This document shows, in pieces, positions 22,568-38,138 of a stretch of 64,000 nucleotides of DNA; within the stretch, counting starts at the first letter, position 1; each line of letters starts with the position of its first letter. The notes under the pieces were generated by a model. It saw only the letters and a list, made by a program, of their open reading frames with translations. It searched no databases and was not told the origin of the DNA. The translations under genes and the position numbers were made by a program. The stretch is from an uncultured Alphaproteobacteria bacterium (GTDB lineage: Bacteria; Pseudomonadota; Alphaproteobacteria; Rhizobiales; Xanthobacteraceae), in the NCBI GenBank assembly GCA_963748165.1, contig CAVVIM010000004.1:1318-65317 (forward strand), in the 5' to 3' direction.

Positions 22568-24019
22568 ATGAGAATTTACCTCGCGTTGCTTGTGACCCTG
22601 ATTTTTTCGGTTGCGCCGCTCAGCCGGTCGATCGCCGCAGACGGTCATGCCGACCGGTTCGCACTGGTCATCGGCAACGCCAAATATCCCGATGCCGAGG
22701 CGCCGCTCAAGGAGCCGATCAACGACGCCCATGACGTCGCCGACGAGCTCAGGCGTGACGGCTTCAATGTCGAGGTCGGAGAAAACCTGAACATCGACGG
22801 CATGCGGCGCGCCTTCGATCGCCTCTACGGACGCATCAAGCCCGGATCGGTGGTGCTGCTCTTCTTCAGCGGCTTCGGCGTCCAGGCCGCCCGGCAGAGC
22901 TACATGATCCCGGTCGACGCCCAGATCTGGACCGAACCCGACGTTCGCCGCGACGGCTTCAGCCTCGAAACAGTTCTCGGCGAAATCAACAACCGCGGTG
23001 CCGGTGTCAAGATCGCCCTGCTCGACGCCAGCCGCCGCAACCCGTTCGAGCGCCGGTTCCGCAGCTTTTCGGCCGGCCTTGCGCCGGTGATTGCACCGAA
23101 CGGAACGCTGGTGATGTATTCGGCGGCACTGGGCTCGGTGATATCAGACAATGGCGGAGACCACAGCCTGTTCGTGCAGGAACTGCTCAAGGAGATTCGC
23201 GTCCCCGACTTGATGGCGGAGGAGACGCTGAACCGGACCCGCGTCGGCGTTACCCGGGCTTCGCGAAGGGAACAGATGCCGTGGATCTCGTCGTCGCTGG
23301 CTGAGGATTTTTCGTTTATCCCGGGTAGCGGCGCGCGACCGCCCGGCCCGTCGGTGGCGACGCTCCCCCCGCCTGCGCCATTGCCGCAAATCGACAATCC
23401 GCCGCCTGCGCCGCAACCCCCGCCATTGCCGCGAGTCGACAACCCGCAGCCGGCCGGACCGGCCGCGATCCCTCCGGCCGCGCGACCCGCGCAACCCGAA
23501 CCCGCGCCGGTGGTCGCGCTGGCCGACGACCCGACCATCAAGAACCTGACCAGCAGGCTCGCCAGCAATCCCGACGACGCCAACGCGTATTATCGGCGCG
23601 GCCAGGTCTATGCCAGCAAGGGCGCCTACAACCTCGCGATCAACGACTTCAACGACACGCTGCGGCTCAATCCAAGGGACGTGGAAGCCTACAACAACCG
23701 CTGCTGGACCCGCACGGTGATCGGCGAACTGCAGGCCGCCTTGAAGGATTGCAACGAGGCGCTGCGGCTGCGTCCGAACTTTGTCGATGCACTGGACAGC
23801 CGCGGCCTGCTGAACTTGAAATACGGCCAGGCCAGAAACGCGATTGCCGATTTCGACGCCGCCCTCAGGATCAATCCGAGACTGACGTCGTCGCTGTACG
23901 GGCGCGGGCTTGCCAGACAGCGCAACGGCGCGATTTCCGAGGGCGAATTGGACATCTCGAACGCCAAGGCGATGGATCCGAATATAGTCAAGGAGTTCGC
24001 CAGTTACGGCGTCAACTGA
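22568..24019 (+). CDS. secreted caspase-fold (peptidase C14-like) protein lacking the catalytic dyad, with a Pro-rich linker and C-terminal TPR repeats
   Basis: Signal peptide MRIYLALLVTLIFSVAPLSRSIA|AD. C14-like core FALVIGNAKYPDAEAPLKEPINDAHDVADELRRDGF...VVLLFFSGFGVQ...IALLDASRRNPF. Phe replaces the His and Ser replaces the Cys. The TPR region reads AYYRRGQVYASKGAYNLAINDFNDTLRLNPRDVEAYNNR... Confidence 0.85.
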   Translation: MRIYLALLVTLIFSVAPLSRSIAADGHADRFALVIGNAKYPDAEAPLKEPINDAHDVADELRRDGFNVEVGENLNIDGMRRAFDRLYGRIKPGSVVLLFFSGFGVQAARQSYMIPVDAQIWTEPDVRRDGFSLETVLGEINNRGAGVKIALLDASRRNPFERRFRSFSAGLAPVIAPNGTLVMYSAALGSVISDNGGDHSLFVQELLKEIRVPDLMAEETLNRTRVGVTRASRREQMPWISSSLAEDFSFIPGSGARPPGPSVATLPPPAPLPQIDNPPPAPQPPPLPRVDNPQPAGPAAIPPAARPAQPEPAPVVALADDPTIKNLTSRLASNPDDANAYYRRGQVYASKGAYNLAINDFNDTLRLNPRDVEAYNNRCWTRTVIGELQAALKDCNEALRLRPNFVDALDSRGLLNLKYGQARNAIADFDAALRINPRLTSSLYGRGLARQRNGAISEGELDISNAKAMDPNIVKEFASYGVN

Positions 24020-24161
24020 CGGCAATTTGAGCCGGACCGCAGGTTTCCTCGAACCCTGGGCAGGGTCCCGAGACCAATGAGAAGCCATGCGGTGATCGGG
24101 TGACCCGCGGCTGGTTTGAGAATTGATTGGAACCGCGCAGATTGCGCAGGAGGATGGGGCT

Positions 24162-24821
24162 ATGACAAAAATCTCTGGAATGAGAAACCTGACCGCGATG
24201 CTCGCGGTCGTGGCCATGGGTGCGGTATTTTCCGTCGCCGCGGGACAAGCTCGCGCCGGCGACGATGTCACCGAGGATCAGATCGTGCGGGCGCTGGCCC
24301 CGGCCAAGAAGCCCTTGACCCGGAGCCTGTCGGTCGGGCCGCAGGCCGATCCCGCGGCGGTCGCCGCCGAGGGCAAGTTCGTTCAGACCATTCGCAACCG
24401 GACCACGCGCTCGCTCTCGGCCGGCGAACGCGAGGAAATCGCCACCATCGCCAAGGACAAGCCCAATATCGATCTGGAGATCAACTTCGACTACAATTCC
24501 GCCGACATCAGCGCGAAGTCGCTGCCCTCGGTGCAGGCGCTGGGACGCGCGCTGATCAATCCGGATCTCAAGGGCTCGACCTTCCTCGTCGCCGGCTACA
24601 CCGACGCCGCCGGCGGCGAGGCCTACAATCAGGACTTGTCCGAACGGCGGGCCGATTCGATCAAGCATTTTCTGGTCGACAAATTCGGTATCGCCGGCAC
24701 CGACCTTGTGACCGTCGGATATGGCAAGACCAAGCTCAAGGATCCGAGCCAACCGATGGCGGAAGCGAACCGCCGGGTGCAGGTCGTCAACATGACGAAC
24801 AAGGCCACCGCCTCGAAGTGA
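24162..24821 (+). CDS. OmpA-family (OmpA_C peptidoglycan-binding) periplasmic protein
   Basis: Signal peptide ...AAGQARA|GD. The C-terminal domain INFDYNSADISAKSLPSVQALGRAL...LVAGYTDAAGGEAYNQDLSERRADSIKHFLV...GYGKTKL...ANRRVQV is OmpA_C-like. AGGAGGA precedes the ATG at 24162. Confidence 0.88.
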   Translation: MTKISGMRNLTAMLAVVAMGAVFSVAAGQARAGDDVTEDQIVRALAPAKKPLTRSLSVGPQADPAAVAAEGKFVQTIRNRTTRSLSAGEREEIATIAKDKPNIDLEINFDYNSADISAKSLPSVQALGRALINPDLKGSTFLVAGYTDAAGGEAYNQDLSERRADSIKHFLVDKFGIAGTDLVTVGYGKTKLKDPSQPMAEANRRVQVVNMTNKATASK

Positions 24822-24859
24822 GATCGGTCGTGGCTCAAGCCGGATTTTGCCGTTACAGT

Positions 24860-24883
24860 GCGTCCCGCCCCCTTGCGGGACGC
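24860..24883 (+). terminator. stem-loop after the OmpA-like gene (possible weak terminator)
   Basis: GCGTCCCGC-CCCCTT-GCGGGACGC followed by CGTTCGT, so the T tract is poor. Confidence 0.3.
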
Positions 24884-24964
24884 CGTTCGTGGCGGAGCCC
24901 GGCCTGACCCTTCCGGACAACCAAAGCCGCGTCCCCGGCGCCACAGTTCTGGATTGATCCGGCG

Positions 24965-25885
24965 ATGACGCTCTCCGAATACCTCAAACCTGCGTTGGCG
25001 GTGGGCGGCGTTGTCGTCCTTGGGGCCGGCTATTACTGGAACGAACACCGTTCCCATCATGCGGACGAGGGCACGCCGAGCAGCGCCCTTGTGGTGGTCA
25101 CCAAGGCGACCAATGCCTGCTTCTCCGATCTGGTGCGGGTCACCGGATTTATCGTGCCACGCCGGGAAGCCGTGGTCGGCGTCGAACAGGAAGGATCCAG
25201 GGTTACCGATCTCATGGTCCATGAAGGCGACATGGTCACGGAGAACCAGGAGCTGGCCCGGCTCACCCCGCCGACAGCACAGCCCGGAAGCAATGCGAGG
25301 TCGGCGCCGGTTTCACTGCGCGCCCCGGCGCCCGGGCTGGTCACCCAGGTCAACACCATCGTGGGGGCGGCCGCCTCGCCCCAGGCCGGGCCGTTGTTTC
25401 GCATTTCCATCAACAACGAGGTCGAACTGGATGCCGAAGTACCGGCCATCCACATGCTGAAGCTCAATCCGGGGGCGACGGCGCGGATCAGCCGGGACGA
25501 TGCGCCGGATATGGTCGGGCGCGTCAGGCTGATCTCGCCGCAAATCGATCGCGCCAACCAGCTCGGCCATGTCAGGATATCGATGAGCTACAATCCTTCG
25601 CTCAAGGTCGGCATGTTCGCGCGCGCCAATATCGACGCCAAGCGCAGTTGCGGGGTCGCCATTCCCCGCACCGCCATTGACCATCTGACGGTTCAGGTGG
25701 TCAAAGGAACCACCGTGGAGACGCGCAACGTCCGGGTCGGACTGGTGTCCGACACCAGCATCGAAATCCTCGAAGGCCTCGACGTCGGCGAAATCGTGGT
25801 GGCCGACGCCGGCAGTTCGCTGCACGACGGCGACCAGATCAAGACCATGTTCGCCGAGGACCTCGATCGGACGCGGGTACGCTGA
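24965..25885 (+). CDS. short HlyD/MFP-type efflux adaptor subunit
   Basis: 306 aa with an N-terminal TM segment. Lipoyl and beta-barrel motifs are visible (RVTDLMVHEGDMVTENQELARL; APAPGLVTQVNTIVG; GRVRLISPQIDRANQLGHVRI). Its stop overlaps the RND ATG (TGATG). Confidence 0.85.
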   Translation: MTLSEYLKPALAVGGVVVLGAGYYWNEHRSHHADEGTPSSALVVVTKATNACFSDLVRVTGFIVPRREAVVGVEQEGSRVTDLMVHEGDMVTENQELARLTPPTAQPGSNARSAPVSLRAPAPGLVTQVNTIVGAAASPQAGPLFRISINNEVELDAEVPAIHMLKLNPGATARISRDDAPDMVGRVRLISPQIDRANQLGHVRISMSYNPSLKVGMFARANIDAKRSCGVAIPRTAIDHLTVQVVKGTTVETRNVRVGLVSDTSIEILEGLDVGEIVVADAGSSLHDGDQIKTMFAEDLDRTRVR

Positions 25886-28800
25886 TGGCTCTGAATATCT
25901 CGGCATGGTCGATCCGCAATCCACTTCCGTCCGTGGTGTTTTCGATCATCCTCCTGGTGCTCGGCTGGGTCAGCTTCACCAAGCTGGCGGTGACACGGCT
26001 GCCCAGCGCCGACATCCCGGTGATCTCGGTCGCGGTGTCGCAATTCGGCGCCGCCCCGGCCGAACTCGAATCGCAGGTCACCAAGACCATCGAAGACGGC
26101 GTCTCCGGCGTCGAGGGCGTGCGGCATATTTCATCCTCGATTACCGACGGCCTGTCGCTGACGACGATCCAGTTCGCGCTCGAGACCAACACCGACCGCG
26201 CGCTGAACGACGTCAAGGACGCGGTGACCCGCGTGCGCGCCAACCTGCCGCAAAACGTCAATGAGCCGCTGATCCAGCGCGTCGACGTGATCGGCCTGCC
26301 GATCGTGACCTATGCCGCGATATCGCCTGGCAAGACGCCCGAGCAATTATCCTACTTCGTCGACGACGTCGTTAAACGCGCCCTGCAGGGGGTGCGCGGC
26401 GTCGCCCAGGTCGAGCGTATCGGCGGTGTCGAGCGCGAAATCCTGGTCTCGCTCGATCCCGACCGGCTGCAGGCCGCCGGCCTCACCGCCGTCAACGTCA
26501 GCCAGAGCCTGCGCGGCACCAATGTCGACCTCGCCGGCGGCCGCGCCGAGATCGGCAAGAACGATCAGGCGATCCGCACGCTGGCCGGCGCCAAGACGCT
26601 CAACGAGCTCGCCGGGACCATGATCCCGCTGTTCACCGGCGGCGAAGTTCGGCTCGACGATCTCGGTACCGTCACCGACACCATCGCCGACCGCCGCACC
26701 TTTGCCCGCTTCAACGGCGAGCCGGTGGTGGCGCTCGGCATCAAGCGCTCCAAGGGTGCGAGCGACGTGGTGGTGGCGGGCCTCGTGCAGAAGCGGATCG
26801 ACGCGCTCAAGGTGGCCTATCCCGACGTCGACCTCAAGCTGATCGACACCTCGGTCGAATTCACCCACGGCAATTACGAGGCCGCGATCTCGACCCTGTT
26901 CGAGGGCGCCATCCTCGCCGTCATCGTCGTGCTGCTGTTCCTGCGCGATATTCGCGCCACCATCATCGCCGCGATCTCGCTGCCGCTGTCGATCTTCCCG
27001 GCATTCTGGGCGATGGATCTGCTCGGATTCTCGCTCAACCTGGTCAGCTTCCTGGCCATCACGCTGTCGACCGGCATCCTGGTCGACGACGCCATTGTCG
27101 AGATCGAGAACATCGTGCGCCATATGCGGATGGGCAAGTCGCCCTACCGCGCGGCGCTGGAGGCGGCCGACGAAATCGGGCTCGCGGTGATCGCGATCAG
27201 CCTCACCATCATCGCGATCTTCGCGCCGGCCAGCTTCATGTCGGGCATCGCCGGCCAGTTCTTCAAGCAATTCGGCATCACGGTTTCGGTGCAGGTGTTC
27301 TTCTCGCTGCTCGCCGCGCGCTTCGTCACGCCGGTGCTGGCCGCCTATTTCCTGAAGGATAGTCCGCATCACGATCCGCCGCCGGGGCGCGTGCTGCAGG
27401 GCTATACCAGGCTCGTCACCTGGTCGGTTCGGCACCATTTCATCACCGTCCTGATCGGGTTCGGCATTTTTGCCGCCTCGATCTGGAGCATCACGCTGTT
27501 GCCGCAGGGCTTCCTGCCGGCGCAGGACACCGCGCGCTCGCTGCTCGCGATGGAACTGCCGCCCGGTTCGCAACTCGCCTACACCGAAAAGGTTACCGAG
27601 GAGATCGTGGCTCGGCTGCGCAAGCATCCCGAGGTCCGGAGCGTGTTCGTCGATGGCGGCCGGGTGCCGCCGGGAACCTTCGAGGTCCGCCGCGCGGCGC
27701 TGATCATCAATTACACCCCGAAGACCGAACGCAAGATCACCCAGCGCGAGCTCGAGCTCGAGATCAGCAAGGAGCTCGAGAACGTCCCGGATATCCGGTT
27801 CTGGTTCCTCGACGAAAACGGCCTGCGCGCGATCTCGCTGGTCGTGACCGGCGCCGACAGCGGCATCGTCGGCAATGTCGCGAGCGAGCTGGCGACCCAG
27901 ATGAAGCGCATTCCGATCATCGCCAACGTGATTTCCGAGACCTCGCTCGACCGGCCCGAATTGCGGATCCAGCCGCGGGCCGATCTCGCCGCGCGTCTCG
28001 GCGTCTCCACCGAAAGCCTGTCGCAGACCATCCGCGTCGCCACCATCGGCGACGTCGGCCCGGCGCTCGCCAAGTTCGACGCCGGCGACCGGCTGGTGCC
28101 GATCCGGGTCCAGCTCGAGGATGCCGCGCGCGGCGACCTGCCGCTGCTCGAGGAGCTGCGGGTGCCGCTCGGCGAACACGGCGAAAAGGGTGGCGTGCCG
28201 CTCTCGGTGGTCGCCGACATCAAGCTCGACCAGGGCCCGACCAGCATCAACCGCTATGACCGGGAGCGCCAGGCCACCGTCGCTGCCGATCTGGTCGGCA
28301 CCGCCGCGCTCGGCGATGCCACCAAGAAGATCTACGATCTGCCGGTGATGAAAAGCCTGCCCAAGGGCGTCAAGGTGAGCCCGTCCGGCGACGCCGAAAG
28401 CCTCAACGAATTGTCGGATGGTTTTGCGACCGCGATTACCGCCGGCCTGATGATGGTCTATGCGGTGCTGGTGCTGCTGTTCGGCACCTTCCTGCAGCCG
28501 ATCACCATCCTGTTCTCGCTGCCGCTCTCGATCGGCGGCGCGATCGTGGCCCTGCTCGTCACCGGCAAGCAGCTCACGACGCCGGTGTGGATCGGCATTT
28601 TGATGCTGATGGGCATCGTCACCAAGAACGCCATCATGCTGGTGGAATTCGCGGTCGAATCGATTCGCGACGGCAAGCCCCGCGACGAAGCCATCATCGA
28701 CGCCGGCATGAAGCGCGCGCGCCCCATTGTCATGACCACCATTGCGATGGCCGCCGGCATGATGCCGAGCGCGCTGGCGTTCGGCGCCGGCGGCGAATTC

Positions 28801-29034
28801 CGCTCGCCGATGGCGCTCGCCGTGATCGGCGGGCTGTTGTTCTCCACCGTGCTGTCGCTGGTGTTCGTGCCGGCGATGTTCATGATGATGGACGATCTCG
28901 GCGCGCTGATCTGGCGTTTCGGCAGCAAGCTGATCGTCTCCACCGGCGATGCCGAGCATCCGCCGGCCGGACATGGCGATCACAGGCAGCCGCCGACACC
29001 CCCGGCGATCGTGCGGTCGCCGGCCGCGGAATAG
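25885..29034 (+). CDS. RND efflux permease (AcrB/HAE family)
   Basis: 1049 aa. The N-terminus ISAWSIRNPLPSVVFSIILLVLG, the 12-TM layout with two large loops, and LSTGILVDDAIVEIENIVRHM are all typical of RND permeases. Confidence 0.93.
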   Translation: MALNISAWSIRNPLPSVVFSIILLVLGWVSFTKLAVTRLPSADIPVISVAVSQFGAAPAELESQVTKTIEDGVSGVEGVRHISSSITDGLSLTTIQFALETNTDRALNDVKDAVTRVRANLPQNVNEPLIQRVDVIGLPIVTYAAISPGKTPEQLSYFVDDVVKRALQGVRGVAQVERIGGVEREILVSLDPDRLQAAGLTAVNVSQSLRGTNVDLAGGRAEIGKNDQAIRTLAGAKTLNELAGTMIPLFTGGEVRLDDLGTVTDTIADRRTFARFNGEPVVALGIKRSKGASDVVVAGLVQKRIDALKVAYPDVDLKLIDTSVEFTHGNYEAAISTLFEGAILAVIVVLLFLRDIRATIIAAISLPLSIFPAFWAMDLLGFSLNLVSFLAITLSTGILVDDAIVEIENIVRHMRMGKSPYRAALEAADEIGLAVIAISLTIIAIFAPASFMSGIAGQFFKQFGITVSVQVFFSLLAARFVTPVLAAYFLKDSPHHDPPPGRVLQGYTRLVTWSVRHHFITVLIGFGIFAASIWSITLLPQGFLPAQDTARSLLAMELPPGSQLAYTEKVTEEIVARLRKHPEVRSVFVDGGRVPPGTFEVRRAALIINYTPKTERKITQRELELEISKELENVPDIRFWFLDENGLRAISLVVTGADSGIVGNVASELATQMKRIPIIANVISETSLDRPELRIQPRADLAARLGVSTESLSQTIRVATIGDVGPALAKFDAGDRLVPIRVQLEDAARGDLPLLEELRVPLGEHGEKGGVPLSVVADIKLDQGPTSINRYDRERQATVAADLVGTAALGDATKKIYDLPVMKSLPKGVKVSPSGDAESLNELSDGFATAITAGLMMVYAVLVLLFGTFLQPITILFSLPLSIGGAIVALLVTGKQLTTPVWIGILMLMGIVTKNAIMLVEFAVESIRDGKPRDEAIIDAGMKRARPIVMTTIAMAAGMMPSALAFGAGGEFRSPMALAVIGGLLFSTVLSLVFVPAMFMMMDDLGALIWRFGSKLIVSTGDAEHPPAGHGDHRQPPTPPAIVRSPAAE

Positions 29035-29051
29035 CCGCGCCGGCGCGGCCG

Positions 29052-29726
29052 TCACTCGTTGCGCGCCACCGCGGTCAGCTTGTTGATGTTCTGCAGCAGG
29101 ATGCGGCCGCGCTGCAGGTCCAGGATGCCCTCCTTGCGCCAGCTCTGAAGCTGGCGATTGACGCTTTCGCGCGCCGCGCCGACGAATATGCCGAGTTGCT
29201 CCTGCGAGATGTGCACCTCGGAGCCGAAATCGGAGGCCAGCGCGCACAGCCGGCGCGCCAGCCGGACCGGCAGCGGCTGCAGCACCGATTCCTCCATCCG
29301 CTCGCTCATCCAGCGAATCCGCTGGCACAATAGCTGGATCAGTTTGACCGCGACGCGCGGTTCGCGCTCGAGATGGGCGAGGAAATCCTCGCGCCGCAGC
29401 ACGAACAGTTCCGACGGCTCGCCCGCCATCGCGTCCGCGGTGCGGCTCTCGCCGTCGAGCACCGCGACCTCGCCGAACAGGTCGCCCGGGCCCATGAAAT
29501 TCAGGGTCAGACGGCTGCCGTCGGAAGCGCCGGTTTCGATCCGGATCTGGCCGCGGCGCACCCCGTACAGGGCATTGCCGGGGTCGCCCTTTTGAAACAG
29601 CATTTCGCCCAGCGCGAGCTGCTGGGTGTGGCAAAGGCCGGAGATCCGCTGCAGTTCGTCGGCGCCGAGGTCCGCGAACATCGGATTCATCTTCAGCATC
29701 ACCGCGAATTCGGTCTGCTTGCTCAT
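29052..29726 (-). CDS. Crp/Fnr family transcriptional regulator (cNMP-binding domain plus HTH)
   Basis: 224 aa. The cNMP-binding beta-roll (LFQKGDPGNALYGVRRGQIRI...GPGDLFGEVAVLDGESRTADA) is followed by a C-terminal HTH (ISQEQLGIFVGAARESVNRQLQSWRKEGIL). There is no N-terminal Cys cluster, so it is not FNR-like. Confidence 0.9.
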   Translation of the reverse strand: MSKQTEFAVMLKMNPMFADLGADELQRISGLCHTQQLALGEMLFQKGDPGNALYGVRRGQIRIETGASDGSRLTLNFMGPGDLFGEVAVLDGESRTADAMAGEPSELFVLRREDFLAHLEREPRVAVKLIQLLCQRIRWMSERMEESVLQPLPVRLARRLCALASDFGSEVHISQEQLGIFVGAARESVNRQLQSWRKEGILDLQRGRILLQNINKLTAVARNE

Positions 29727-29781
29727 GGCATTGCCTTTCGGGATGTCAAAACAGGCGTATCAAGATCTGGCTGCCGGGAAG

Positions 29782-29797
29782 TGTGTCATAAGTCACA
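29782..29797. promoter_or_regulatory. CRP-like box TGTGT-CATAAG-TCACA
   Basis: Matches the TGTGA-N6-TCACA core at 9 of 10 positions. It lies in the divergent crp-like/asmA intergenic region, centred about 63 bp from the crp ATG and about 143 bp from the asmA ATG. Confidence 0.45.
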
Positions 29798-29931
29798 TAT
29801 CTTTGCAGTAGCTTCGGATTATTTTGGCGTCCTTTGAGCTGTTCCGCTATTCCGGGATAAGCTTGAGCCATCGGCCGCGCCCAAACACGCGCCGCCGCCA
29901 TCGATGCCGCGTGCCGGTCTGGAATGTCGTC

Positions 29932-31851
29932 ATGAGAGCCTTGAAAATCATCGGGACCGCCACCGCTGCCGTGATTGTCGTGATCGGACTGCTGCTGGTG
30001 ATCGGGATTCCCTTCAACTTCCTGACCTCGACCATCCAGGCGCGGGTCGAGCAACAGACCGGCTATCGGCTGGCGGTCGGGGGCAACACCCGCATCGGGG
30101 TCTGGCCGTCGCTCAACGTGACCCTGAACGACGTCACGCTGCAGGACCCGAAAGACCGCGGCAGCAGCGATCGCCTGACCGTGACCCGGGTCCAGGCCGA
30201 CATCACCCTGAAGAGCCTGTGGTCGGGGCAGCCCGAGATCACCGAACTCGCCATCGTCCGCCCGATCCTGAACGTGCCGTTGCGGCGCGAACGCAGCGCG
30301 CAGCCTTTGCCGTCCTCGCAGCCCGCGGCGTCCACCGGCGACAGCGACGCCCCGGCATTCTCGATCGATCGCGTCACGGTGAGCGACGGCACCATGGTGT
30401 TTTCCAATCTGCGCGACCGCGTCGAGAATCGCATCGAGGGCATCGGTGCCACCGCCGTGATCGCGGCCGACCGCGCCATCGCGATCACCGGTCATGCCCG
30501 CGCCGGCGGGCAGCCGCTGACGGTCGAGATCAAGGCGGTGGCGCCGCCTCCGCCACTGGGGCGGCAGAACATTCCGGTCGACCTCAGGTTCGAGGCGCCC
30601 GGCGTGCTGCCAAGCCCGCTGTCGGCCAAGGCCGAGCTGCGGCTCAACGGTGCGGTGGTGATGATCAACGGCCTTAGCGGCGCGCTTGGCGACGGGGCGT
30701 TCAACGGCTGGGCCTCGGTCGATATCGCGAGCAAGCCGCTGGTGAAGCTCGACCTCGATTTCCAGCGCCTGGAGCTCGCCTTGGCGGGGGATCGTCCGGC
30801 GCCGGCGGCATCGCAGCCCTGGAGCAATGCACCGTTCGACTTCACCGGACTGAATTATGTCGACGCCCAGGCCAGGATCTCCGCGGCCGAGCTGATTGTC
30901 GGCGACGAGCATTTCGCGCCGGCCGAGATCGAGGCGACGCTGGCCGGGGGCATTGTCAAACTCGGCGTTGCCAATCTCGGCGCCTATGGCGGTCAGGCCA
31001 GCGGCGAGCTCGTCATCGACGCCTCGGCGGCCAGCCCCGCTTACGCGCTGCACAGCGACTTCGCCGGGGTGCGCGCGCTGCCGCTGCTGCAGAGCGCCGC
31101 TGGCTTCGACAAGCTCGACGGCAAGTTGCAGGCGAAACTGACGCTGCATGCCGCCGGCGCCAGCCCGCATGCCATCATGTCGAGCCTCGACGGCACCGTG
31201 TTCGCGGTGTTGCAGGATGGCGCGGTGCGCGGCCTCAACGTCGCCCAGATGATCCGCTCGCTCACTTCCAGCACGCTGTCGGGATGGCAGGAGGGCAAGA
31301 AGCAGGCCACCGATCTGAGCCAGCTCGGCGCCTCGTTCCGGGTCGACAAGGGCCAGGCGGTGACCAACGATCTCAACCTGGTCGGCCCGCTGGTGCGGGT
31401 GACCGGCGCCGGCACGGTCGACCTGGCCGGCAAGGCGCTGGCGTTCCGGGTCGAGCCCAAGCTCGTCATGACCACCGAGGGCCAGGGCCGCGCCGCCGAC
31501 CCGGTCGGGCTCGGCATCCCCGTGGTGATCGACGGCCCCTGGGACCAGCCGCGGATCTATCCCGACATGGCCGGCATGCTGGACAATCCCGATGCCGCCT
31601 ATGCCAAGCTCAAGGAAATGGGCACCGGCCTGTTCGGCGCCAATGCCGCGCTCGGCGGCCTGGGCGGCAGCGCGACCGGCGGCGCCGGTACGTCCGACGC
31701 CCTCGGCGGCAAGCTCGGCGAGACCCTCGGCAACCTGCTGCAGCAGGGCATCGGCCGCAGCCGCGATGTCTCGACGACGACGCCCGGCGCGCCGCCGTCC
31801 CCCCGGTCCAGCCCGATCCCAATGCGGCGGCGCCGGAAAGCCAGCCGATGA
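29932..31851 (+). CDS. AsmA family protein
   Basis: N-terminal anchor MRALKIIGTATAAVIVVIGLLLVIG, an AsmA-like beta-rich body, and a C-terminal AsmA_2-like region (FRVDKGQAVTNDLNLVGPLVRVTGAGTVDL). The last ~15 codons look off-frame, and an alternative frame ends ...QPMNDVLRQLFNR at 31883 (see findings). Confidence 0.85.
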   Translation: MRALKIIGTATAAVIVVIGLLLVIGIPFNFLTSTIQARVEQQTGYRLAVGGNTRIGVWPSLNVTLNDVTLQDPKDRGSSDRLTVTRVQADITLKSLWSGQPEITELAIVRPILNVPLRRERSAQPLPSSQPAASTGDSDAPAFSIDRVTVSDGTMVFSNLRDRVENRIEGIGATAVIAADRAIAITGHARAGGQPLTVEIKAVAPPPPLGRQNIPVDLRFEAPGVLPSPLSAKAELRLNGAVVMINGLSGALGDGAFNGWASVDIASKPLVKLDLDFQRLELALAGDRPAPAASQPWSNAPFDFTGLNYVDAQARISAAELIVGDEHFAPAEIEATLAGGIVKLGVANLGAYGGQASGELVIDASAASPAYALHSDFAGVRALPLLQSAAGFDKLDGKLQAKLTLHAAGASPHAIMSSLDGTVFAVLQDGAVRGLNVAQMIRSLTSSTLSGWQEGKKQATDLSQLGASFRVDKGQAVTNDLNLVGPLVRVTGAGTVDLAGKALAFRVEPKLVMTTEGQGRAADPVGLGIPVVIDGPWDQPRIYPDMAGMLDNPDAAYAKLKEMGTGLFGANAALGGLGGSATGGAGTSDALGGKLGETLGNLLQQGIGRSRDVSTTTPGAPPSPRSSPIPMRRRRKASR

Positions 31852-31890
31852 ATGACGTGCTGCGGCAATTGTTCAACCGCTGACGCCGTT

Positions 31891-31950: not shown

Positions 31951-32094
31951 TGCCGCACGCGATATCTCTGCCATCGGCAGCGCGGCTAACCACGCCGGCA
32001 GGCGCCCGGGCCAAGCCCGCTCGATTTGTGCTACAGAGGCCACGGCTGAGACGACCATGGCTGCCGCCGTCCGGCGGTGCTTCCGAGGGTTTGG

Positions 32095-34554
32095 ATGATC
32101 GGGGTCAGGGATAAAATCCGGCGTCTGGGCGAGGGCCTGTTTGCCAAATACGTCCTCGCGCTGGTCGGCCTTGTGGTGTTCGTGCTGGCCGTCAACGGCG
32201 CGATCGAGACCTTTATCAGCTACCGCGCCACCAAGACCACGCTGACCGATGCGATGTCGGAAAAGGCCGAGGCGACGGCGCGGCGGATCGAGCAATCGGT
32301 CAGCGATCTCGGCCGGCAGATCAGTTGGGTGACCCGCGCCAGCGCCCAGACCCTGGAGCAGCACCGGGCCGACTACACGCAACTGCTGAACCAGGTGCCG
32401 GCGGTCAGCCAGCTCCGGCTCTTGAACGGCAGCGGCCGCGAGCAGCTCCGGCTGTCGCGCACCACGATCACGGTAAATGACGGCAGCGATTTTTCCCGCG
32501 ACCCGCGCTTTACCGAAACCGTGATCCGGGGCGTCAGCTACGCGCCGGCCTATTTCACGGATTCGCAACCCCTGATGTCGATCGCGGTGTCGCAGTCGGG
32601 CTTCAACGCCGGCGTGACCATCGCCGACATCGACCTCAGCTTCCTGAGCGATTTCCTCGGCGACACCCAGGTCGGCAAGGCCACCTTCGCCTATGTGGTC
32701 GACGGGCGCGGCCAGGTGCTGGCGACCTCGTCGAAGGGCCCGCAGATCGGCAAGAGCCTGTCGGCGCTGCCGCAGGTCGCCGCGGTGCTGGCGCCGAACG
32801 GCCAGCCCCAGGCGTCGGGCCGCAACGCCGACGGCGATGCGGTGCTGACCGCGGCGAGCGAAGTGCCGAAGCTCGGCTGGTACGTGTTCTTCGAGCAGCC
32901 GACCGCGCAGGCGCTGGCGCCGATCCGTGACCAGGTGCTGCGGGTGGCGCTGTTGATCGCGCTCGGTCTCGTGGTGGCGATCCTCGCCGGTTCGCTGCTG
33001 GCGCGGCGGATGCTGATCCCGATCACCGCGCTGCGCACCGGCGCGCGGCGGCTCGGCGCCGGCGAGTTCAGCCACCGCATCGACGTCCGCACCGCCGACG
33101 AACTGCAGGAGCTGGCCGACCAGTTCAACAGCATGGCCGGCCAGTTGCAGGAAACCTATTCCGGGCTCGAATCCAAGGTGCAGGAGCGGACCCGCGACCT
33201 CGCGCAGTCGATCAACGAGCTCAAGGTGCTGGAGGAAGTCGGGCGCGCGGTCGCCTCCTCGCTCGATCTCAACGCGGTGCTGCCGACGGTGGCGGCCCGC
33301 GCGCTCGAAATCACCCATGCCGATGCGGTGCTGATCTACGGCTATGACGCCGCCCGGCAGCAGTTCAACCTGACCGAGGCGATCGGCATCGACCGCGGCG
33401 CCGAAGGCCAGCATCTGGTGATCGACCGCGATTCCAGCGTGCTCGGCGAGGCCGCGACCAAGGGCGAGCCGATCGCGATCCCGGAGCTTGCCGCCACCGC
33501 CGACCATTTGCTGCGCGACGCCGCGGTCGGCGCCGGCTTTCATTCGGTGCTGGTGGTGCCGCTGGTCGACCAGCAGGGCATTCTGGGCTCGCTGGTGGTG
33601 CTGCGGCGCAGCACCGGCGCCTTCTCGCCGAACCTGATCGGCTTGATGCGGACCTTTGCGCATCAATCGGCGCTGGCGATGCGCAACGCCCGGCTGTTCA
33701 CCGAGGTCGACCAGAAGGGCCGCGAACTGGCGTCGGCGCACAGCACGGTGCAGCAGCAGGCCGGCAAGCTGCAGGAACAGACCGACCAGCTCCTGAACTG
33801 GAACCGGTCGCTGGAGGAACGGGTCGAGAAGCAGCTCGCGGAAATCGAGCGCATCCGCAGGCTCGAGCGCTTCCTCGCGCCGCAGGTGGCGCAACTGATC
33901 GCCTCCTCCGACGGCCACGATGCGCTGCTCGACAGCCACCGCCGCGAGGTCACCGTGGTGTTCTGCGACCTGCGTGGCTTCACCGCCTTCACCGAGAGCA
34001 CCGAGCCCGAAGAGGCGATGAATGTGCTGCGCGAATATCACGCCGCGCTCGGCGAACTGATCTTCCGCTACGAGGGCACGCTCGACCGCTATGCCGGCGA
34101 CGGCGTCATGATCCTGTTCAACGCGCCGATCCAGTTTGCCGATCACACCAGGCGCGCGGTCAAGATGGCGGTGGAAATGCGCGACACCATCGGGCTTCTG
34201 ACCGAGAAGTGGCGCAACCGCGGCCACAGCCTCGGCTTCGGCGTCGGCGTCGCGCTCGGCTATGCCACGCTCGGCCAGATCGGTTTCGAGCAGCGGCTGG
34301 AATATGCCGCGATCGGCAGCGTCACCAACCTCGCCTCGCGGCTGTGCGACGAAGCCAAGGCGAACCAGATCGTGGTCGGCCGCCGCGTCTACGGCATGGT
34401 CGAGCAATGGGTCGAGGGCCGCGCGATCGACGATCTGCATCTCAAGGGCTTCAACCATCCGATCCTCGCCGCCGAGATCCTGCGCTGGCGCGAGGACGCC
34501 GACATCGTCGACATCGCCGCCACCCCCGCCCGCCGCCGCCAGCGCCCGTCGTGA
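32095..34554 (+). CDS. membrane sensor class III adenylate/guanylate cyclase (Cache-like periplasmic domain, HAMP, GAF, coiled coil, cyclase)
   Basis: Two TM segments flank a ~250-aa periplasmic region. HAMP: ITALRTGARRLGAGEFSHRIDVRTADELQELADQFNSMAGQL. A GAF-like segment follows. Cyclase core: REVTVVFCDLRGFTAF...GTLDRYAGDGVMILFNAP...LGFGVGVALGYATLGQIG...YAAIGSVTNLASRL. Start is ATG 32095 or GTG 32077. Confidence 0.9.
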   Translation: MIGVRDKIRRLGEGLFAKYVLALVGLVVFVLAVNGAIETFISYRATKTTLTDAMSEKAEATARRIEQSVSDLGRQISWVTRASAQTLEQHRADYTQLLNQVPAVSQLRLLNGSGREQLRLSRTTITVNDGSDFSRDPRFTETVIRGVSYAPAYFTDSQPLMSIAVSQSGFNAGVTIADIDLSFLSDFLGDTQVGKATFAYVVDGRGQVLATSSKGPQIGKSLSALPQVAAVLAPNGQPQASGRNADGDAVLTAASEVPKLGWYVFFEQPTAQALAPIRDQVLRVALLIALGLVVAILAGSLLARRMLIPITALRTGARRLGAGEFSHRIDVRTADELQELADQFNSMAGQLQETYSGLESKVQERTRDLAQSINELKVLEEVGRAVASSLDLNAVLPTVAARALEITHADAVLIYGYDAARQQFNLTEAIGIDRGAEGQHLVIDRDSSVLGEAATKGEPIAIPELAATADHLLRDAAVGAGFHSVLVVPLVDQQGILGSLVVLRRSTGAFSPNLIGLMRTFAHQSALAMRNARLFTEVDQKGRELASAHSTVQQQAGKLQEQTDQLLNWNRSLEERVEKQLAEIERIRRLERFLAPQVAQLIASSDGHDALLDSHRREVTVVFCDLRGFTAFTESTEPEEAMNVLREYHAALGELIFRYEGTLDRYAGDGVMILFNAPIQFADHTRRAVKMAVEMRDTIGLLTEKWRNRGHSLGFGVGVALGYATLGQIGFEQRLEYAAIGSVTNLASRLCDEAKANQIVVGRRVYGMVEQWVEGRAIDDLHLKGFNHPILAAEILRWREDADIVDIAATPARRRQRPS

Positions 34555-34560
34555 CGCCTC

Positions 34561-34677: not shown

Positions 34678-34680
34678 GCG

Positions 34681-35448
34681 TCACGGTTTGTCCTGCTGGG
34701 TGTTGATGGCACGGAGCGCCAGCGGGATGCGGAAGATCCGGTATCCCGCGATGTCGGGAAACGAGCCCGCCGCTTCCGCCGATACCAGGGTGAGCACTGC
34801 GGCCGGGACGTCGCCGCCGATCAGCCGGTCGACCGGCTTTGCCTCGCTATCGCTCAACAGCACCCGTGCCGCTCCCGCGGCCACCATCGCGATCCAGACC
34901 TTGTTCCTGGACGCGACCTGCCGTTGGTCGATCGCCACGGTCCTTCCGCTGAGATCGGCGATCGACTTGATCTCCGGACGCGCCAGGATCAGGGCGACCC
35001 GGGAGTCGGGTTCGCCGGGCAACGCGGCGACGCCCGGCGCCGCCGCGATGCGCTCGGCGACTGCCGTCGCGGCCTCGACCTGTTGTTGGATCGTGAGGGT
35101 CTTGGGGCTCGCGACGGCGCCGCCTCCGGAATGTGAGTCCGCGATTGCCGCGCGCGCCGAACCGGCGGCGACGTTGCGTGCGGGCGGCAAGGGTGTCTTC
35201 GATGAACCGGACGAGGGCCGATGGCGAGCCGACGACGCCCTTTTGATCTTTGCCGCGGTGCCGGCGTGAATTTTCGCGCTCACGGATGGGGTCTTGAGCG
35301 GAGCCGGCTCCGCTTCGACCGGCCGAGCGGCAGCCGTCTCGGAACAGGCCACCCGGTCCGCATCCGAGACCAGGTTCGCGTGCGGCGGCATGCGGTTGCT
35401 GCAGCCGGCCATGGTCACGGCCAGCGCGCCGATGATAAGCGTTCTCAT
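34681..35448 (-). CDS. hypothetical lipoprotein
   Basis: Lipobox MRTLIIGALAVTMAG|C. AGAGGA precedes the ATG. It has an Ala/Pro/Ser-rich linker and then a ~120-aa globular C-terminal part. No family was recognised. Confidence 0.65.
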   Translation of the reverse strand: MRTLIIGALAVTMAGCSNRMPPHANLVSDADRVACSETAAARPVEAEPAPLKTPSVSAKIHAGTAAKIKRASSARHRPSSGSSKTPLPPARNVAAGSARAAIADSHSGGGAVASPKTLTIQQQVEAATAVAERIAAAPGVAALPGEPDSRVALILARPEIKSIADLSGRTVAIDQRQVASRNKVWIAMVAAGAARVLLSDSEAKPVDRLIGGDVPAAVLTLVSAEAAGSFPDIAGYRIFRIPLALRAINTQQDKP

Positions 35449-35902
35449 GCAATCCTCTGTGGAGGCTTGAGTTCCGCTGGCAATTCTTGCCGCGTCATCC
35501 TGTTTCGCGCTGGGTCCGCTATCTCTTGTGCAAAATTATTAAACGCCCATTAAGCGTCCGGGCTTTGCGGCGCGAAGCAAGTGCATGGTTAAGATCGTCG
35601 CAACGCCGCTGGCGTCGTCATGCGCGTCACCACGCACGGCGGCGCCATCTCGCGGCGCGATGCGCCGGAGTCGCTGACCAATTCCTTCGCCTCGAACCAA
35701 ACAGAGGGCGCAGGAGAGAGCACACGACTTCGCCGTCCGCGAGCTCGGCCAGGGGCGGTCTCAGCACGACTTTGCCGGCGCTGGAATGCAGTTCCATATC
35801 GGTATAGAGCATTGCTGGATCACAGCGATAACTTCGACACGTCGGGATGATATCGCGCCTGAAGCCCGTTTCCGATAGACCCGTACAATTCCAGGAACGA
35901 AC

Positions 35903-36103
35903 ATGAGCAACGACAATTCGTCCTCGCTTCCCGAACTCAACGACCGCATCGCGGTACTTCGGGACAATATCCGACAGTTGGTAGAACAAGCGGCTGCATC
36001 TTCGGGCGCGCAGGATGAAGAGCGAACCTCCGAGCGGATTGCCCAGCAGCAGCAGGAACTCGAAAAGCTGGTCGAACAGCGTGACGCCATGTTGAAAAAA
36101 TAG
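35903..36103 (+). CDS. small coiled-coil hypothetical protein (66 aa)
   Basis: ATG preceded by AGGAA. The composition is non-GC-biased (LPELNDRIAVLRDNIRQLVEQAA...QQQQELEKLVEQRDAMLKK). No family was recognised. Confidence 0.5.
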   Translation: MSNDNSSSLPELNDRIAVLRDNIRQLVEQAAASSGAQDEERTSERIAQQQQELEKLVEQRDAMLKK

Positions 36104-36243
36104 CGGCGAGGCGCGGAGCAGATTTTTGCGCGCGGGCAATCCTGCGGGAAATCGGCAGCAGGTGCCGACTTCGATCGCTCCTCCCGCTTGGCCCGCCACC
36201 TGCCCTTCTGCTATCGATAGCCCATCAAAGAGATGGAATCCCG

Positions 36244-37146
36244 ATGCCCACCCACCCCGCGCGCAGGCCTTCACGGCGACTGCCCCTCTTTCTCGCCGCG
36301 ACCCTGTTCTGCCTCGCCTCGCATCACGCCCTCGCCGCCGACGATGCCATGGACGCGGCGCGCAAGGGTGCCGCGGTCTCGGTGCTGAAGGCCACAAAAT
36401 CCTGCTTTGACGCCATTGTCGAAGTCTCCGGCATTGTGCGGCCGCGGGAGGAGACGTTTGTGCGGCCGGAGCGGCAGGGGCTCAAGGTGACGGACATCCT
36501 GGCCGACGCCGGCGATGCCGTGACGCCGGGGCAGACGCTGGCGCGGCTGGCGCTGCCGGAAGGTGGCGTGGTGCAGGTGCAGGCCCCGGTGGCCGGGCTG
36601 ATTTCCGTCTCCACCGCCACGATCGGCGCGGTGGCCTCGGCCAAGGGCGAGGCGCTGTTCACCATCATCGCGCGCAGCGAATTCGACCTGATCGGCCTGG
36701 TGCCGACCCGCGACCTGCCCAAGCTGAAGGTAGGGCAGCCGGCCAAGATCCGGATCATCGGCGCCACCCTGCTCGACGGCAGGGTGACCCGGGTGGCGCC
36801 GACCGTCGAGCCCAACAGCCAGCTCGGCCAGGCCACGATCGCGGTGACCTCGAGCCAGCGGCTGCTGGTCAATTCGTCGGCGCGGGCACTGATCAAGACC
36901 GGCCAGAGCTGCGGCAATGTCGGGGTGCCGCTCACCGCCGTGCTCTATGGCAGCGCCGGCACCATCGTGCAGGTGGTGAAGCGCGACCGGATCGAGACCA
37001 GGCGGGTCGAGGTCGGATTGATGTCGGGCGGCCAGGTCGAAATCCGCGACGGCCTTTCCGAAGGCGACGTCGTGGTGGCGCGGGCCGGCGCGCTATTGCG
37101 CGAAGGCGATCCGGTGCGGCCGGTCACCAGCGCCGACGCGAAATAG
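36244..37146 (+). CDS. short HlyD/MFP-type adaptor paralog with signal peptide; no cognate pump gene adjacent
   Basis: Aligns along its full length with 24965..25885 (VLKATKSCFDAIVEVSGIVRPREE...KVTDILADAGDAVTPGQTLARL...APVAGLISVSTATIG...GRVTRVAPTVEPNSQLGQATI...). Signal peptide ...SHHALA|AD. Confidence 0.8.
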   Translation: MPTHPARRPSRRLPLFLAATLFCLASHHALAADDAMDAARKGAAVSVLKATKSCFDAIVEVSGIVRPREETFVRPERQGLKVTDILADAGDAVTPGQTLARLALPEGGVVQVQAPVAGLISVSTATIGAVASAKGEALFTIIARSEFDLIGLVPTRDLPKLKVGQPAKIRIIGATLLDGRVTRVAPTVEPNSQLGQATIAVTSSQRLLVNSSARALIKTGQSCGNVGVPLTAVLYGSAGTIVQVVKRDRIETRRVEVGLMSGGQVEIRDGLSEGDVVVARAGALLREGDPVRPVTSADAK

Positions 37147-37175
37147 CGGGGTTGCGGGGCCGGATCGGCCTCGTG

Positions 37176-37270
37176 GTTCGAGACGCGCGGCGTTGCCGCG
37201 CTCCTCACCATGAGGGTTTGGCACGGACCTCATCCTGAGGAGGCGCGAAGCGCCGTCTCGAAGGATGAAG
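37176..37270. repeat. REP family D (nested palindrome TTCGAGACGCGC...CTCCTCACCATGAGG...CCTCATCCTGAGGAGG...GCGCCGTCTCGAAGGATGAAG)
   Basis: Single copy in this window, between convergent genes. The outer arms TTCGAGACGCGC / GCGCCGTCTCGAA and the inner arms CTCCTCA / TGAGGAG are both visible. Confidence 0.7.
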
Positions 37271-37280
37271 CTGCGGCCGG

Positions 37281-38138
37281 CTAGCCGCCGGCCTTGTCGT
37301 CGGATCCGAGCTGGACGTCGTCGAGCAGCGACGAGGATACCGACGGCACCTGTTCGCCCTCGGAGGCGCGGGCGACGACGCCGCGGGTCTTGTTGAAGGC
37401 GGCCTCGGCACCGGCGCGGGAATTGAGGTTGTTGAGCAGCTCGGCCACCAGCACGCTGTACTGGCCGCTGGAATCGTCGACCACCTTGCCCGGCGTCGCC
37501 GACGACAGGATCAGCGTGTTGTCGGGCGCGTCGATCGGGGCGAGGCCGTGGGAAAAGGTGCGGAAGCGGCGCTCATAGGGATTGCGCCGCGACGCGTCGA
37601 TGACGACGAGCTTGGCGCGGGCGCCGCGCTCGGTCATGACGTCAAGCACCTGCTCGACGCTGATCCCGTCGCGGCGGACGTCGGCGGCCTTCCAGATCGT
37701 CGCATCGACCGGGATCATGTAGCTCTCGCGGCCGACCTGGACGCCATAGCCGCCGAAAAACAGCATCACCACGGAATTGGGCCGCACCTTCGATTGCAGC
37801 CGGGCGACCGCGCGGCGCATGTCGTCCTTGCTGGCATCCTCCACCACGTCGACGTCGAAACCGTCACGCCGCAGCGCCGCGCCCAGCGCCCTGGCGTCGT
37901 TGATCGGCTGGGTCAGCGGCGCACTGGCGTCGGGGTAGTGTCCGTTGCCGATCACCAGCGCCACCTTGGTGGCCTGGCTGGTGATGTCGCTGCCCTGCTC
38001 GGTGGCGATGGTCTTGGCCGCATCCAGTGCCCGCATGTTCAGCGCCGCGTGGGCGCCGATCGCCAGCGACAGCATGCCGACCAGCACCGCGGCCGCGGCC
38101 ACCGGTCGGCGAGAGATGCGAAGCTTCCAGACTTTCAT
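37281..38138 (-). CDS. secreted caspase-fold (peptidase C14-like) protein lacking the catalytic dyad; paralog of 22568..24019 without TPR
   Basis: Signal peptide ...LAIGAHA|A. Core VALVIGNGHYPDASAPLTQPINDARALGAALRRDGF...VVMLFFGGYGVQ...LVVIDASRRNPYERRF. Tyr replaces the His and Ser replaces the Cys, and the mature protein has no cysteine. ATG at 38138 after AGGAA. Confidence 0.85.
   Translation of the reverse strand: MKVWKLRISRRPVAAAAVLVGMLSLAIGAHAALNMRALDAAKTIATEQGSDITSQATKVALVIGNGHYPDASAPLTQPINDARALGAALRRDGFDVDVVEDASKDDMRRAVARLQSKVRPNSVVMLFFGGYGVQVGRESYMIPVDATIWKAADVRRDGISVEQVLDVMTERGARAKLVVIDASRRNPYERRFRTFSHGLAPIDAPDNTLILSSATPGKVVDDSSGQYSVLVAELLNNLNSRAGAEAAFNKTRGVVARASEGEQVPSVSSSLLDDVQLGSDDKAGG

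Follow-up and report, generated by a model that had tools for sequence, protein, structure and literature searches.

Introduction

What does a caspase fold do in the bacterial periplasm once its catalytic residues have been lost? The question is raised by a stretch of 64,000 nucleotides (the window) from an uncultured Alphaproteobacteria bacterium of the family Xanthobacteraceae (GenBank assembly GCA_963748165.1, contig CAVVIM010000004.1, positions 1,318 to 65,317), in which two exported pseudo-caspases mark the ends of a gene cluster encoding an RND permease, two short HlyD-type adaptors (MFP1 and MFP2), a membrane sensor with a nucleotidyl cyclase domain and a CRP-family regulator. An earlier reading made from the DNA letters alone (the sequence-only reading) had seen here a duplicated module of pseudo-caspase plus adaptor. 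Judging from gene order in the window and in related genomes, the stretch from 22.3 to 38.4 kb forms a single conserved envelope system and not two modules, and we tentatively regard the pseudo-caspases as non-catalytic binding subunits connected to both the pump and the signalling genes.

To our knowledge pseudo-orthocaspases have no known function, and a link to photosynthesis is the sole published suggestion. The locus contradicts this suggestion, placing pseudo-caspases in the periplasm of soil Bradyrhizobium-type bacteria, and it provides a first concrete genomic clue to the role of the pseudo-enzymes by naming defined partners: two hairpin-less adaptors, an RND permease, a dCache-GAF cyclase or kinase and a CRP regulator. 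Background comes from the census by Klemencic, Asplund-Samuelsson, Dolinar and Funk (2019), in which Rhizobiales account for 96% of 582 alphaproteobacterial pseudo-orthocaspases (PMC6426788). Pseudo-orthocaspases amount to 8.6% of bacterial orthocaspases, mostly from Rhizobiales; the common dyads of the alphaproteobacterial ones are YS, YA and FS, with FS “consistently” accompanied by C-terminal TPRs and YS lacking a recognisable extra domain (PMC6426788). The same authors reported that the acidic specificity pocket is retained and argued for the photosynthesis link, and a term search of their paper, a census of sequence and phylogeny, found no mention of operon, neighbour or efflux (PMC6426788).

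Results

Both window proteins are caspase-fold, signal-peptide-bearing proteins that have lost the catalytic His and Cys. The first (22568..24019, + strand) is an exported pseudo-orthocaspase of the FS type consisting of a Sec-like signal peptide, a C14 domain, a Pro-rich linker and TPRs (C14-TPR hereafter); the TPRs, found by Pfam at residues 319-454, are confined to this protein. The second (37281..38138, - strand) is of the YS type and carries a conserved, SRR-containing signal peptide and no extra domain (short C14 hereafter). Pfam model PF00656 (Peptidase_C14) matches them with E values of 2e-36 and 1.5e-36, respectively, and the two C14 domains share 54% identity across 224 aa. In the HMMER alignment to MALT1, LLFFSGFGVQ is placed onto LLYYAGHGYE, with Phe at the His position, and LLDASR onto LLDMCR, with Ser at the Cys position. 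The corresponding codons are those of Phe103 (TTC, 22874-22876) and Ser155 (AGC, 23030-23032) in C14-TPR and of Tyr131 (37746-37748) and Ser183 (37590-37592) in the short C14. The only Cys residues of C14-TPR, 379 and 395, both lie in the TPR part, and the short C14 has none in its whole length. An AlphaFold2 model of the short C14, built on a 58-sequence alignment, has a core pLDDT above 90 and finds MALT1 caspase domains as top PDB matches (E 8e-16), followed by caspases 7, 3 and 9. The TM score on the MALT1 target is 0.78. Orthocaspases are by definition devoid of a p10 domain; because the model spans about 229 of the 234 residues of the whole MALT1 caspase domain, a p10-like half seems to be present in it. 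The sequence-only reading thus proved accurate for the open reading frames (ORFs), the signal peptides, the caspase fold (by Pfam and AlphaFold2), the missing dyad (by the MALT1 alignment), the absence of Cys from the first C14 region and from the entire second protein, and, to the base, the Phe and Ser codons of C14-TPR.

These substitutions are shared by a large family. A profile search of 1.84 billion cluster representatives returned 11,417 representatives at E <1e-30. Among the best 150 of the 50%-identity representatives the His position is mostly F/Y/I/L and the Cys position S/A, with no nucleophile/base pair retained, and the high-scoring single-domain matches in this set are nearly all of the F/Y/I/L plus S/A kind. 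The window proteins belong to a large F/Y/I/L plus S/A pseudo-orthocaspase clade of Bradyrhizobium and related Xanthobacteraceae, whose C14 domains are followed by TPR, FGE-sulfatase or WD40 tails or by none. The 58-sequence family alignment contains no invariant or near-invariant His or Cys column. What is invariant in it are D81 and D181 (short-C14 numbering), aligned with two Asp of MALT1 that we take to be its S1-pocket residues, and the family also shares an invariant Arg-rich loop, D-A-[SA]-R-R-N-P-[FY]-E-R-R-F-R. What is conserved here resembles a retained binding site more than a catalytic one, and the non-catalytic binding role proposed by the sequence-only reading is a sensible interpretation of signal-peptide-bearing caspase folds without a dyad.

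Other assignments of the C14 proteins were tried and rejected. For known anti-phage conflict systems with caspase, TPR or FGE-sulfatase parts, PADLOC gave only weak generic caspase matches (E 5e-6 and 8e-8) and none for the neighbouring genes. The NCBIfam model for EACC1-type caspases scored far under its cut-off, and the window proteins bear signal peptides. Matches to the C14 domain in a plasmid collection (tblastn) stayed below 40% identity, were labelled ordinary caspase family proteins (dyads unchecked) and are not orthologs.

The two adaptors are MFP1 (24965..25885, +), with an N-terminal membrane anchor, lipoyl and beta-barrel domains, presumably a membrane-proximal domain, no alpha-hairpin and a Cys pair, and MFP2 (36244..37146, +), hairpin-less as well, with a cleavable signal peptide and the conserved Cys54/Cys223. 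Both match HlyD_D23/HlyD_3 (Pfam) and TIGR01730 (RND_mfp). As the sequence-only reading had noted, they are short (about 300 aa each) and paralogous, aligning nearly end to end (38% identity over 264 aa). Residues 105-298 of MFP2 align to residues 142-338 of MexJ, and since the first half of the lipoyl domain directly precedes this stretch, the hairpin of about 70 residues is missing. The AlphaFold2 model of MFP2 agrees: residues 55-220 are modelled confidently as an all-beta structure without a hairpin, no helices occur within residues 55-155, and only the membrane-proximal part is poorly modelled. Its top PDB matches (Foldseek) are the seven chains of BesA, the only hairpin-less adaptor known to date, at an identity of only about 20%. 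The two adaptors represent different subtypes, type a being membrane-anchored (MFP1, which resembles MFP84a at 47-49% identity) and type b carrying a cleavable Sec-type signal peptide (MFP2, which resembles MFP84b at 46%). In 32 hairpin-less adaptors drawn from the two subtypes, C54 and C223 (numbered as in MFP2) do not vary, and a periplasmic disulfide between them is possible. A Tat signal was considered for MFP2 and rejected, the twin-Arg of the window copy not being conserved in orthologs.

Between C14-TPR and the pump, gene order (derived from an analysis of GC content at third codon positions and from the ORF listing) is as the sequence-only reading gave it: an OmpA_C-like peptidoglycan binder (24162..24821, +; signal peptide, no lipobox; Pfam OmpA E 2e-19), then MFP1, then the RND permease (25885..29034, +; ACR_tran, HAE1-like, Pfam E 4e-228), whose start overlaps the MFP1 stop by one base. 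The OmpA-like protein scores below the cut-offs of all YiaD/YfiB/Pal-like NCBIfam models (the YfiB match is weak), and the permease stays under every NCBIfam cut-off (RND_permease_2: 689 bits against a cut-off of 1250). A Pfam scan detected no outer-membrane factor (OEP/TolC-type domain) among the major ORFs of the 64-kb window, again in agreement with the sequence-only reading.

That these genes form one locus is best seen in relatives. The Bradyrhizobium comparison comprised 80 species-level loci (loci L001-L083 surround orthologs of the short C14); the contig scan was filled by Bradyrhizobium orthologs of the short C14 and gave depth within the genus and little breadth, and wider sampling came from the 50%-identity representatives, the profile search and eight contig look-ups. 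Most instructive is L005 (Bradyrhizobium, 81% identity), where C14-TPR, MFP1, RND and MFP2 follow each other on one strand with gaps of 181, 2 and 107 bp and the convergent short C14 lies 30 bp past MFP2, making a five-gene cluster; no sensor, cyclase or Crp gene occurs within 10 kb. Compared with L005, the window contains an inserted OmpA-like gene and an inserted block of 7.2 kb with the Crp, AsmA and cyclase genes and the gene for a 255-aa protein. The OmpA-like gene is likewise absent from the window's position in L031, L039 and L062, and in the OmpA-less loci MFP1 begins 115-181 bp after C14-TPR. More distant relatives keep other parts: C14-TPR, MFPa, RND and AsmA remain in order in L089 and L171, the latter (64% identity) retaining C14-TPR, OmpA, MFPa, RND, Crp and AsmA.

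A second, paralogous type of locus was found in other Xanthobacteraceae via a profile of distant family members, in one metagenome scan that yielded 80 examples (73-100% identity, L090-L169). It contains an RND gene, a DUF4399 gene on the opposite strand, C14-FGE, MFPa, a dCache-HAMP-GAF-histidine kinase, a response regulator (RR), an RR-cyclase and MFPb, with Crp adjoining. C14-FGE is a single ORF encoding a signal peptide, a pseudo-C14 domain (YS/YA), a Pro/Ala linker and an FGE-sulfatase domain (e.g. L091:6812-8650), and MFPa begins only a few bases after it. C14-FGE and the window's C14-TPR follow a common head-linker-tail logic. Proteins of the paralogous locus share 38-55% identity with their window counterparts; the window sensor-cyclase shares 53% identity (535 aa) with the sensor part of the paralogous kinase and 62% with the RR-cyclase. 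Since the sensor and cyclase parts are themselves paralogous, the two types of locus are paralogs of ancient origin, built from one list of parts. The adjacency of caspase and adaptor extends beyond this genome, C14-X followed on the same strand by a type a adaptor being kept in two paralogous families.

Within the C14-FGE family, C14-FGE and the sensor kinase are always present, and the adaptors and, with one exception, the RND gene come and go together. MFPa and MFPb are both present in 15/15 assessable loci of one kind and both absent in 6/6 of the other; an upstream RND gene occurs in 16 of the 17 loci with MFPa and in none of the three without it (19/20 concordant). These counts overstate independence, because the loss may be a single event.

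The signalling genes of the locus lie between the pump and MFP2. The CRP-family regulator (29052..29726, -; cNMP_binding plus HTH_Crp_2) has the recognition helix RESVNR, which corresponds to the RE..R of the E. coli CRP recognition helix. It is divergent to an AsmA-family gene (29824..31851, +; AsmA/DUF748/YhdP-like) that recurs in L001, L085, L086, L089 and L171. Next follows a dCache-HAMP-GAF membrane sensor fused to a class III nucleotidyl cyclase (32077..34554, +; Guanylate_cyc domain). Its substrate-specifying residues, read by eye, are ambiguous between cAMP and cGMP. Genes for Crp, a dCache-GAF cyclase or kinase and an RR-cyclase recur in L001, L084, L085 and L090-L169.

Possible binding sites for the regulator were searched for in the whole 64 kb as TGTGA-N6-TCACA with at most one mismatch. 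Three boxes were found against 0.81 expected, a number reached by 2 of 100 shuffles, and all three are intergenic and inside this locus: TGTGGGGTCCATCACA (22329..22344) between the MBL-fold gene (start 22290, -) and C14-TPR, TGTGTCATAAGTCACA (29782..29797) in the divergent Crp/AsmA region, and CGTGACCTGGGTCACA (38405..38420) between the short C14 and a divergent gene for a 578-aa protein. The Crp/AsmA box, which reads TGTGACTTATGACACA on the opposite strand, is found again in many related loci. Of 83 related loci, 73 have a box with no more than one mismatch ahead of the short C14, at a distance of 228-329 bp from its start; the half-sites are kept and the spacers vary. In L086 the C14-TPR ortholog is preceded, at 228 bp, by a perfect box. 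The background in the C14-FGE loci is 18 boxes per 553 kb, none at a fixed position, and as no conserved box precedes the C14-FGE genes, the CRP link is specific to the window's locus type. For the FNR/FixK-type box TTGA-N6-TCAA the window gave no match. The predicted parts of a CRP-cNMP (cyclic nucleoside monophosphate) regulon, namely regulator, palindromic boxes and cyclase, are all present.

The remaining genes of the region are less telling. A 255-aa protein without an assigned family (34681..35448, -) has a lipoprotein-like N-terminus (..TMAGC), is weakly conserved in relatives and among the 83 loci was seen in L004 only. The 578-aa divergent neighbour of the short C14 (38550..40286, +, start approximate) is conserved and has no match in Pfam, NCBIfam or PADLOC; whether it is part of the system is uncertain. 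An Rfam scan of the window at gathering thresholds gave no match, and promoter and terminator consensus scans gave chance level only.

Several observations concern the surroundings. Upstream of the locus (12826-22290) lie homogentisate-type/aromatic catabolic genes, i.e. HPPD, fumarylacetoacetase, an FAD aromatic hydroxylase, MarR and two MBL-fold genes; the hydroxylase, MarR and the MBL-fold gene near C14-TPR have kept their position in L005, L086 and L089, the last of which has the upstream fumarylacetoacetase as well. A short ORF with a signal peptide (40491-40868, +) is 50-87% identical over its first ~114 residues to the ORF in the same position in relatives, which in L001 encodes a 241-aa SNase-domain (thermonuclease-like) protein; the tail of the window copy is Arg/Pro-rich, as if a truncation or frameshift had occurred in it. 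A second class III cyclase, its N-terminal catalytic domain fused to TPRs, is encoded at 59684-61450 (-), and a separate protein consisting almost entirely of TPR repeats at 51708-52898 (-), which suggests that the region of the window is rich in cNMP and TPR signalling genes. An IS110-family transposase (DEDD_Tnp_IS110 plus Transposase_20) lies at 4000-5031 (-).

Discussion

The reading that we favour, with a probability of about 0.45, is that the pseudo-caspases serve as periplasmic binding subunits without catalytic activity, linked both to cNMP signalling and to an RND machine that has two adaptors and no outer-membrane-factor gene nearby; their physical role is inferred. We lean, with the same reserve, towards a hub rather than a pure pump or a pure sensor role, because a C14 protein stays with the pump where the sensor is missing (L005) and with the sensor where the pump is missing (part of the C14-FGE family). 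The RND permease would work with two hairpin-less adaptors, one membrane-anchored and one soluble, in a TriAB-like hetero-oligomer, and probably without the usual tip-to-tip docking to a TolC-type duct, which is improbable because the adaptors have no hairpins and no outer-membrane-factor gene is nearby. The C14 head, which keeps the two MALT1-aligned Asp and carries the invariant Arg-rich loop, would bind non-catalytically, and a variable tail is added to it. The pseudo-caspases may bind to the assembly of adaptors and pump, and also to the dCache sensor in loci that have one, either tethering the assembly or delivering a ligand, and expression of the locus would be tied to the local cNMP-CRP circuit. 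In this respect the envelope sensing function considered by the sequence-only reading fits the recurrent dCache-GAF cyclase/kinase and Crp genes.

A bolder version of this proposal makes the pseudo-caspases structural subunits of a new envelope machine. Here RND and the two hairpin-less adaptors would be capped or tethered via TPR, FGE-sulfatase or OmpA-like partners instead of a TolC duct and would move an envelope component such as a lipid or lipopeptide to the periplasm or the outer membrane, while C14 would report the state of the machine to the dCache-GAF cyclase and hence to CRP. We consider this version doubtful. If true, interest in the locus would rise sharply, as caspase-fold proteins would be structural parts of a pump without an outer-membrane duct. 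Already the indication of an RND pump type with two adaptors, no hairpins and no outer-membrane-factor gene in the 64-kb window bears on our understanding of how tripartite pumps are built.

A number of observations weigh against the favoured reading. All loci compared belong to Bradyrhizobium or other Xanthobacteraceae, and within so narrow a group synteny by itself counts for little. MFP2 is convergent with the short C14 in 70 of the 74 assessable Bradyrhizobium loci; the two genes are hence not co-transcribed, and in L038 and L045 MFP2 is missing beside the short C14 while the other left-hand synteny is intact. The 578-aa divergent neighbour, present in 80 of 81 assessable loci, is as conserved as MFP2, so that the adjacency of MFP2 and short C14 taken alone is weak evidence. 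The CRP-type boxes sit in divergent intergenic regions, which leaves the controlled genes ambiguous: the box at 22329 is only 39 bp from the start of the MBL-fold gene, and that at 38405 shows class II-like spacing for the rightward 578-aa gene, with TATAGG about 30 bp downstream, and fits the C14 promoter worse, so that the 578-aa gene is probably best placed to be driven by it. A gene for an outer-membrane factor may lie outside the window, in another part of the genome. The presence-absence pattern of MFPa, MFPb and RND may reflect just one or two evolutionary events. In L088 and L170, pseudo-C14 genes occur without adaptor, pump or sensor nearby. Finally, some loci of the C14-FGE family lack the pump and both adaptors and keep C14-FGE together with the sensor kinase, and in L085 the C14 and OmpA genes are accompanied by those for the sensor, RR-cyclase, Crp and AsmA, with no adaptor or pump within 7 kb.

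The last two cases also support the strongest rival explanation, which is unlikely. It holds that the pseudo-caspases are periplasmic partners or ligand-binding proteins of the dCache-HAMP-GAF cyclase/kinase, comparable to periplasmic binding proteins or YfiR-type regulators that act on membrane sensors, and that pump and adaptors are merely co-regulated output or neighbours. The pump-less C14-FGE loci, where C14-FGE, dCache-GAF kinase, RR and RR-cyclase form a constant core, do point to the sensor rather than the pump as the C14 partner, and an OmpA-like protein adjoins the C14 gene in the window, L085, L086, L088 and L171. In sharp contrast, L005 packs both C14 genes with the pump and both adaptors in the absence of any sensor, cyclase or Crp gene within 10 kb, and in the window the cyclase gene is 2.7 kb and 8 kb away from the C14 genes with other genes in between.

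Somewhat less plausible still is that the pseudo-caspases act as decoys or dimerisation partners regulating active exported orthocaspases encoded elsewhere, much as cFLIP does with caspase-8, with the adaptor adjacency being incidental. Secreted orthocaspases with intact GHG/DAC do lie beside pseudo ones (L171:6298-8292, 664 aa; L088:14014-16047, -, 677 aa; L170:491-1387, -, 298 aa), and a pseudo and an active C14 domain are fused in the single chains P0122, P0135, P0136, P0166 and P0179, which hints that pseudo and active orthocaspases may work in pairs. Yet no active C14 gene exists anywhere in the 64-kb window, where the conserved partners are adaptors, pump and signalling genes, and such a scenario leaves the pair of C14-X and adaptor-a, kept in two paralogous families, unexplained.

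The scenario of two independent copies of a pseudo-caspase plus short adaptor module, the second working without a pump, is improbable. It is true that both the C14 and the adaptor families are paralogous within the window and that each C14 gene lies near an adaptor gene. The pairs differ, however, in orientation and order, and the second pair, being convergent (adaptor +, C14 -), is not an operon. The type a and type b adaptors differ and occur together with a single RND, and in L005 the second adaptor gene directly follows the RND gene, the two supposed modules being the ends of one contiguous cluster; the duplicated two-gene module of the sequence-only reading is not supported by our data. 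Its statement that the second adaptor has no pump gene at all holds for the immediate neighbours, but the RND gene lies 7.2 kb upstream of MFP2 in the same locus. Because the a and b subtypes co-occur with one RND and MFP2 directly follows RND in L005, MFP2 is probably not pump-less; it is most likely the second adaptor of the same RND, as in TriAB.

Even less credible is that there is no functional link whatsoever, the adjacency being inherited family synteny and the pseudo-caspases serving an unrelated periplasmic role. The narrow taxonomic origin of the comparative loci, the equally conserved, unrelated-looking 578-aa neighbour and the paralogs without any proposed partner (L088, L170) would all agree with it. 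Against it stands the reassembly of the same parts in the paralogous locus, at 38-55% identity, in another gene order and with an FGE-sulfatase tail instead of TPR.

A residual protease, for which one could cite the Ser in place of the Cys nucleophile in both window proteins, is hardly worth considering: close family members have Ala at the nucleophile position (YA, IA, LA), the His position is F/Y/I/L, and our check for the displaced Ser/His pair named by the sequence-only reading found no conserved His column in 58 sequences, and with Ala alternating with Ser and no base conserved such a mechanism is very unlikely.

Comparison with known systems

The caspase domain of the window proteins has its best sequence and structure match in MALT1 and the animal caspases, with which it shares a single-chain caspase domain; the window proteins differ in being bacterial, exported, free of death and Ig domains and without an active partner in the window. 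A dead caspase paralog that acts through binding is familiar from cFLIP, which does so with caspase-8.

By analogy only, the parts list of the locus can be set beside that of YfiBNR envelope signalling, whose parts are a membrane nucleotide cyclase, a regulator in the periplasm and a protein of the OmpA/Pal kind: the window encodes an OmpA_C-like binder, a soluble protein of the periplasm and a membrane cyclase whose sensor domain is periplasmic. The differences are clear, as the pseudo-caspases have no homology to YfiR, the cyclase is class III and not GGDEF, and the OmpA-like gene is dispensable in relatives.

With the CRP-cAMP regulons (E. coli CRP; rhizobial Clr, PMC10127613) the locus shares a CRP-family regulator, TGTGA-N6-TCACA boxes in promoter regions and a class III cyclase alongside. 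The window differs in combining a local circuit, with a dCache-HAMP-GAF sensor cyclase, and putative targets.

Among tripartite pumps, the AcrAB-TolC type shares an RND with an adjacent adaptor, whereas the hairpin and, in the 64-kb window, the outer-membrane-factor gene are missing here. BesA, which serves the Borrelia RND pump BesABC as a hairpin-less adaptor (PDB 4KKS/4KKT; PMC3807786, PMC4338810), shares lipoyl, beta-barrel and membrane-proximal domains without a hairpin, at only ~20% identity; BesA partners the outer-membrane factor BesC, no gene for such a factor is found near the window locus, and the window has two adaptor subtypes with a conserved Cys pair. In TriABC-OpmH of Pseudomonas aeruginosa both adaptors are required, and TriA and TriB are 36% identical (PMC4338810, citing Mima et al. 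2007). One RND with two adaptor paralogs of ~36-38% identity is common to both systems, and in L005 the three genes stand in one string. TriA and TriB have hairpins and use OpmH, and in the window 7.2 kb separate the second adaptor gene from the pump gene.

The closest relatives are the Rhizobiales pseudo-orthocaspases themselves, which share with the window proteins a p20-type C14 domain with substituted dyad, the FS-plus-TPR and YS classes and the bacterial order; their acidic pocket is paralleled by the invariant MALT1-aligned Asp pair of the window family. Beyond the census, the window proteins have signal peptides and lie in an RND/adaptor/cNMP locus of a soil Bradyrhizobium-type genome. 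Literature searches on a caspase/efflux/OmpA link in Bradyrhizobium and on cAMP, Crp and RND in Bradyrhizobium found nothing relevant. The sequence-only reading could assign the arrangement to no described system; pseudo-caspases of both kinds (FS with TPR, YS) had in fact been described before (PMC6426788), and it is their genomic association that appears to be new. Each element is known by itself, the pseudo-caspases as well as adaptors without a hairpin (BesA) and pumps with two adaptors (TriABC), and the locus presented here, conserved in compact, expanded and paralogous forms, joins them in a combination that appears to be undescribed.

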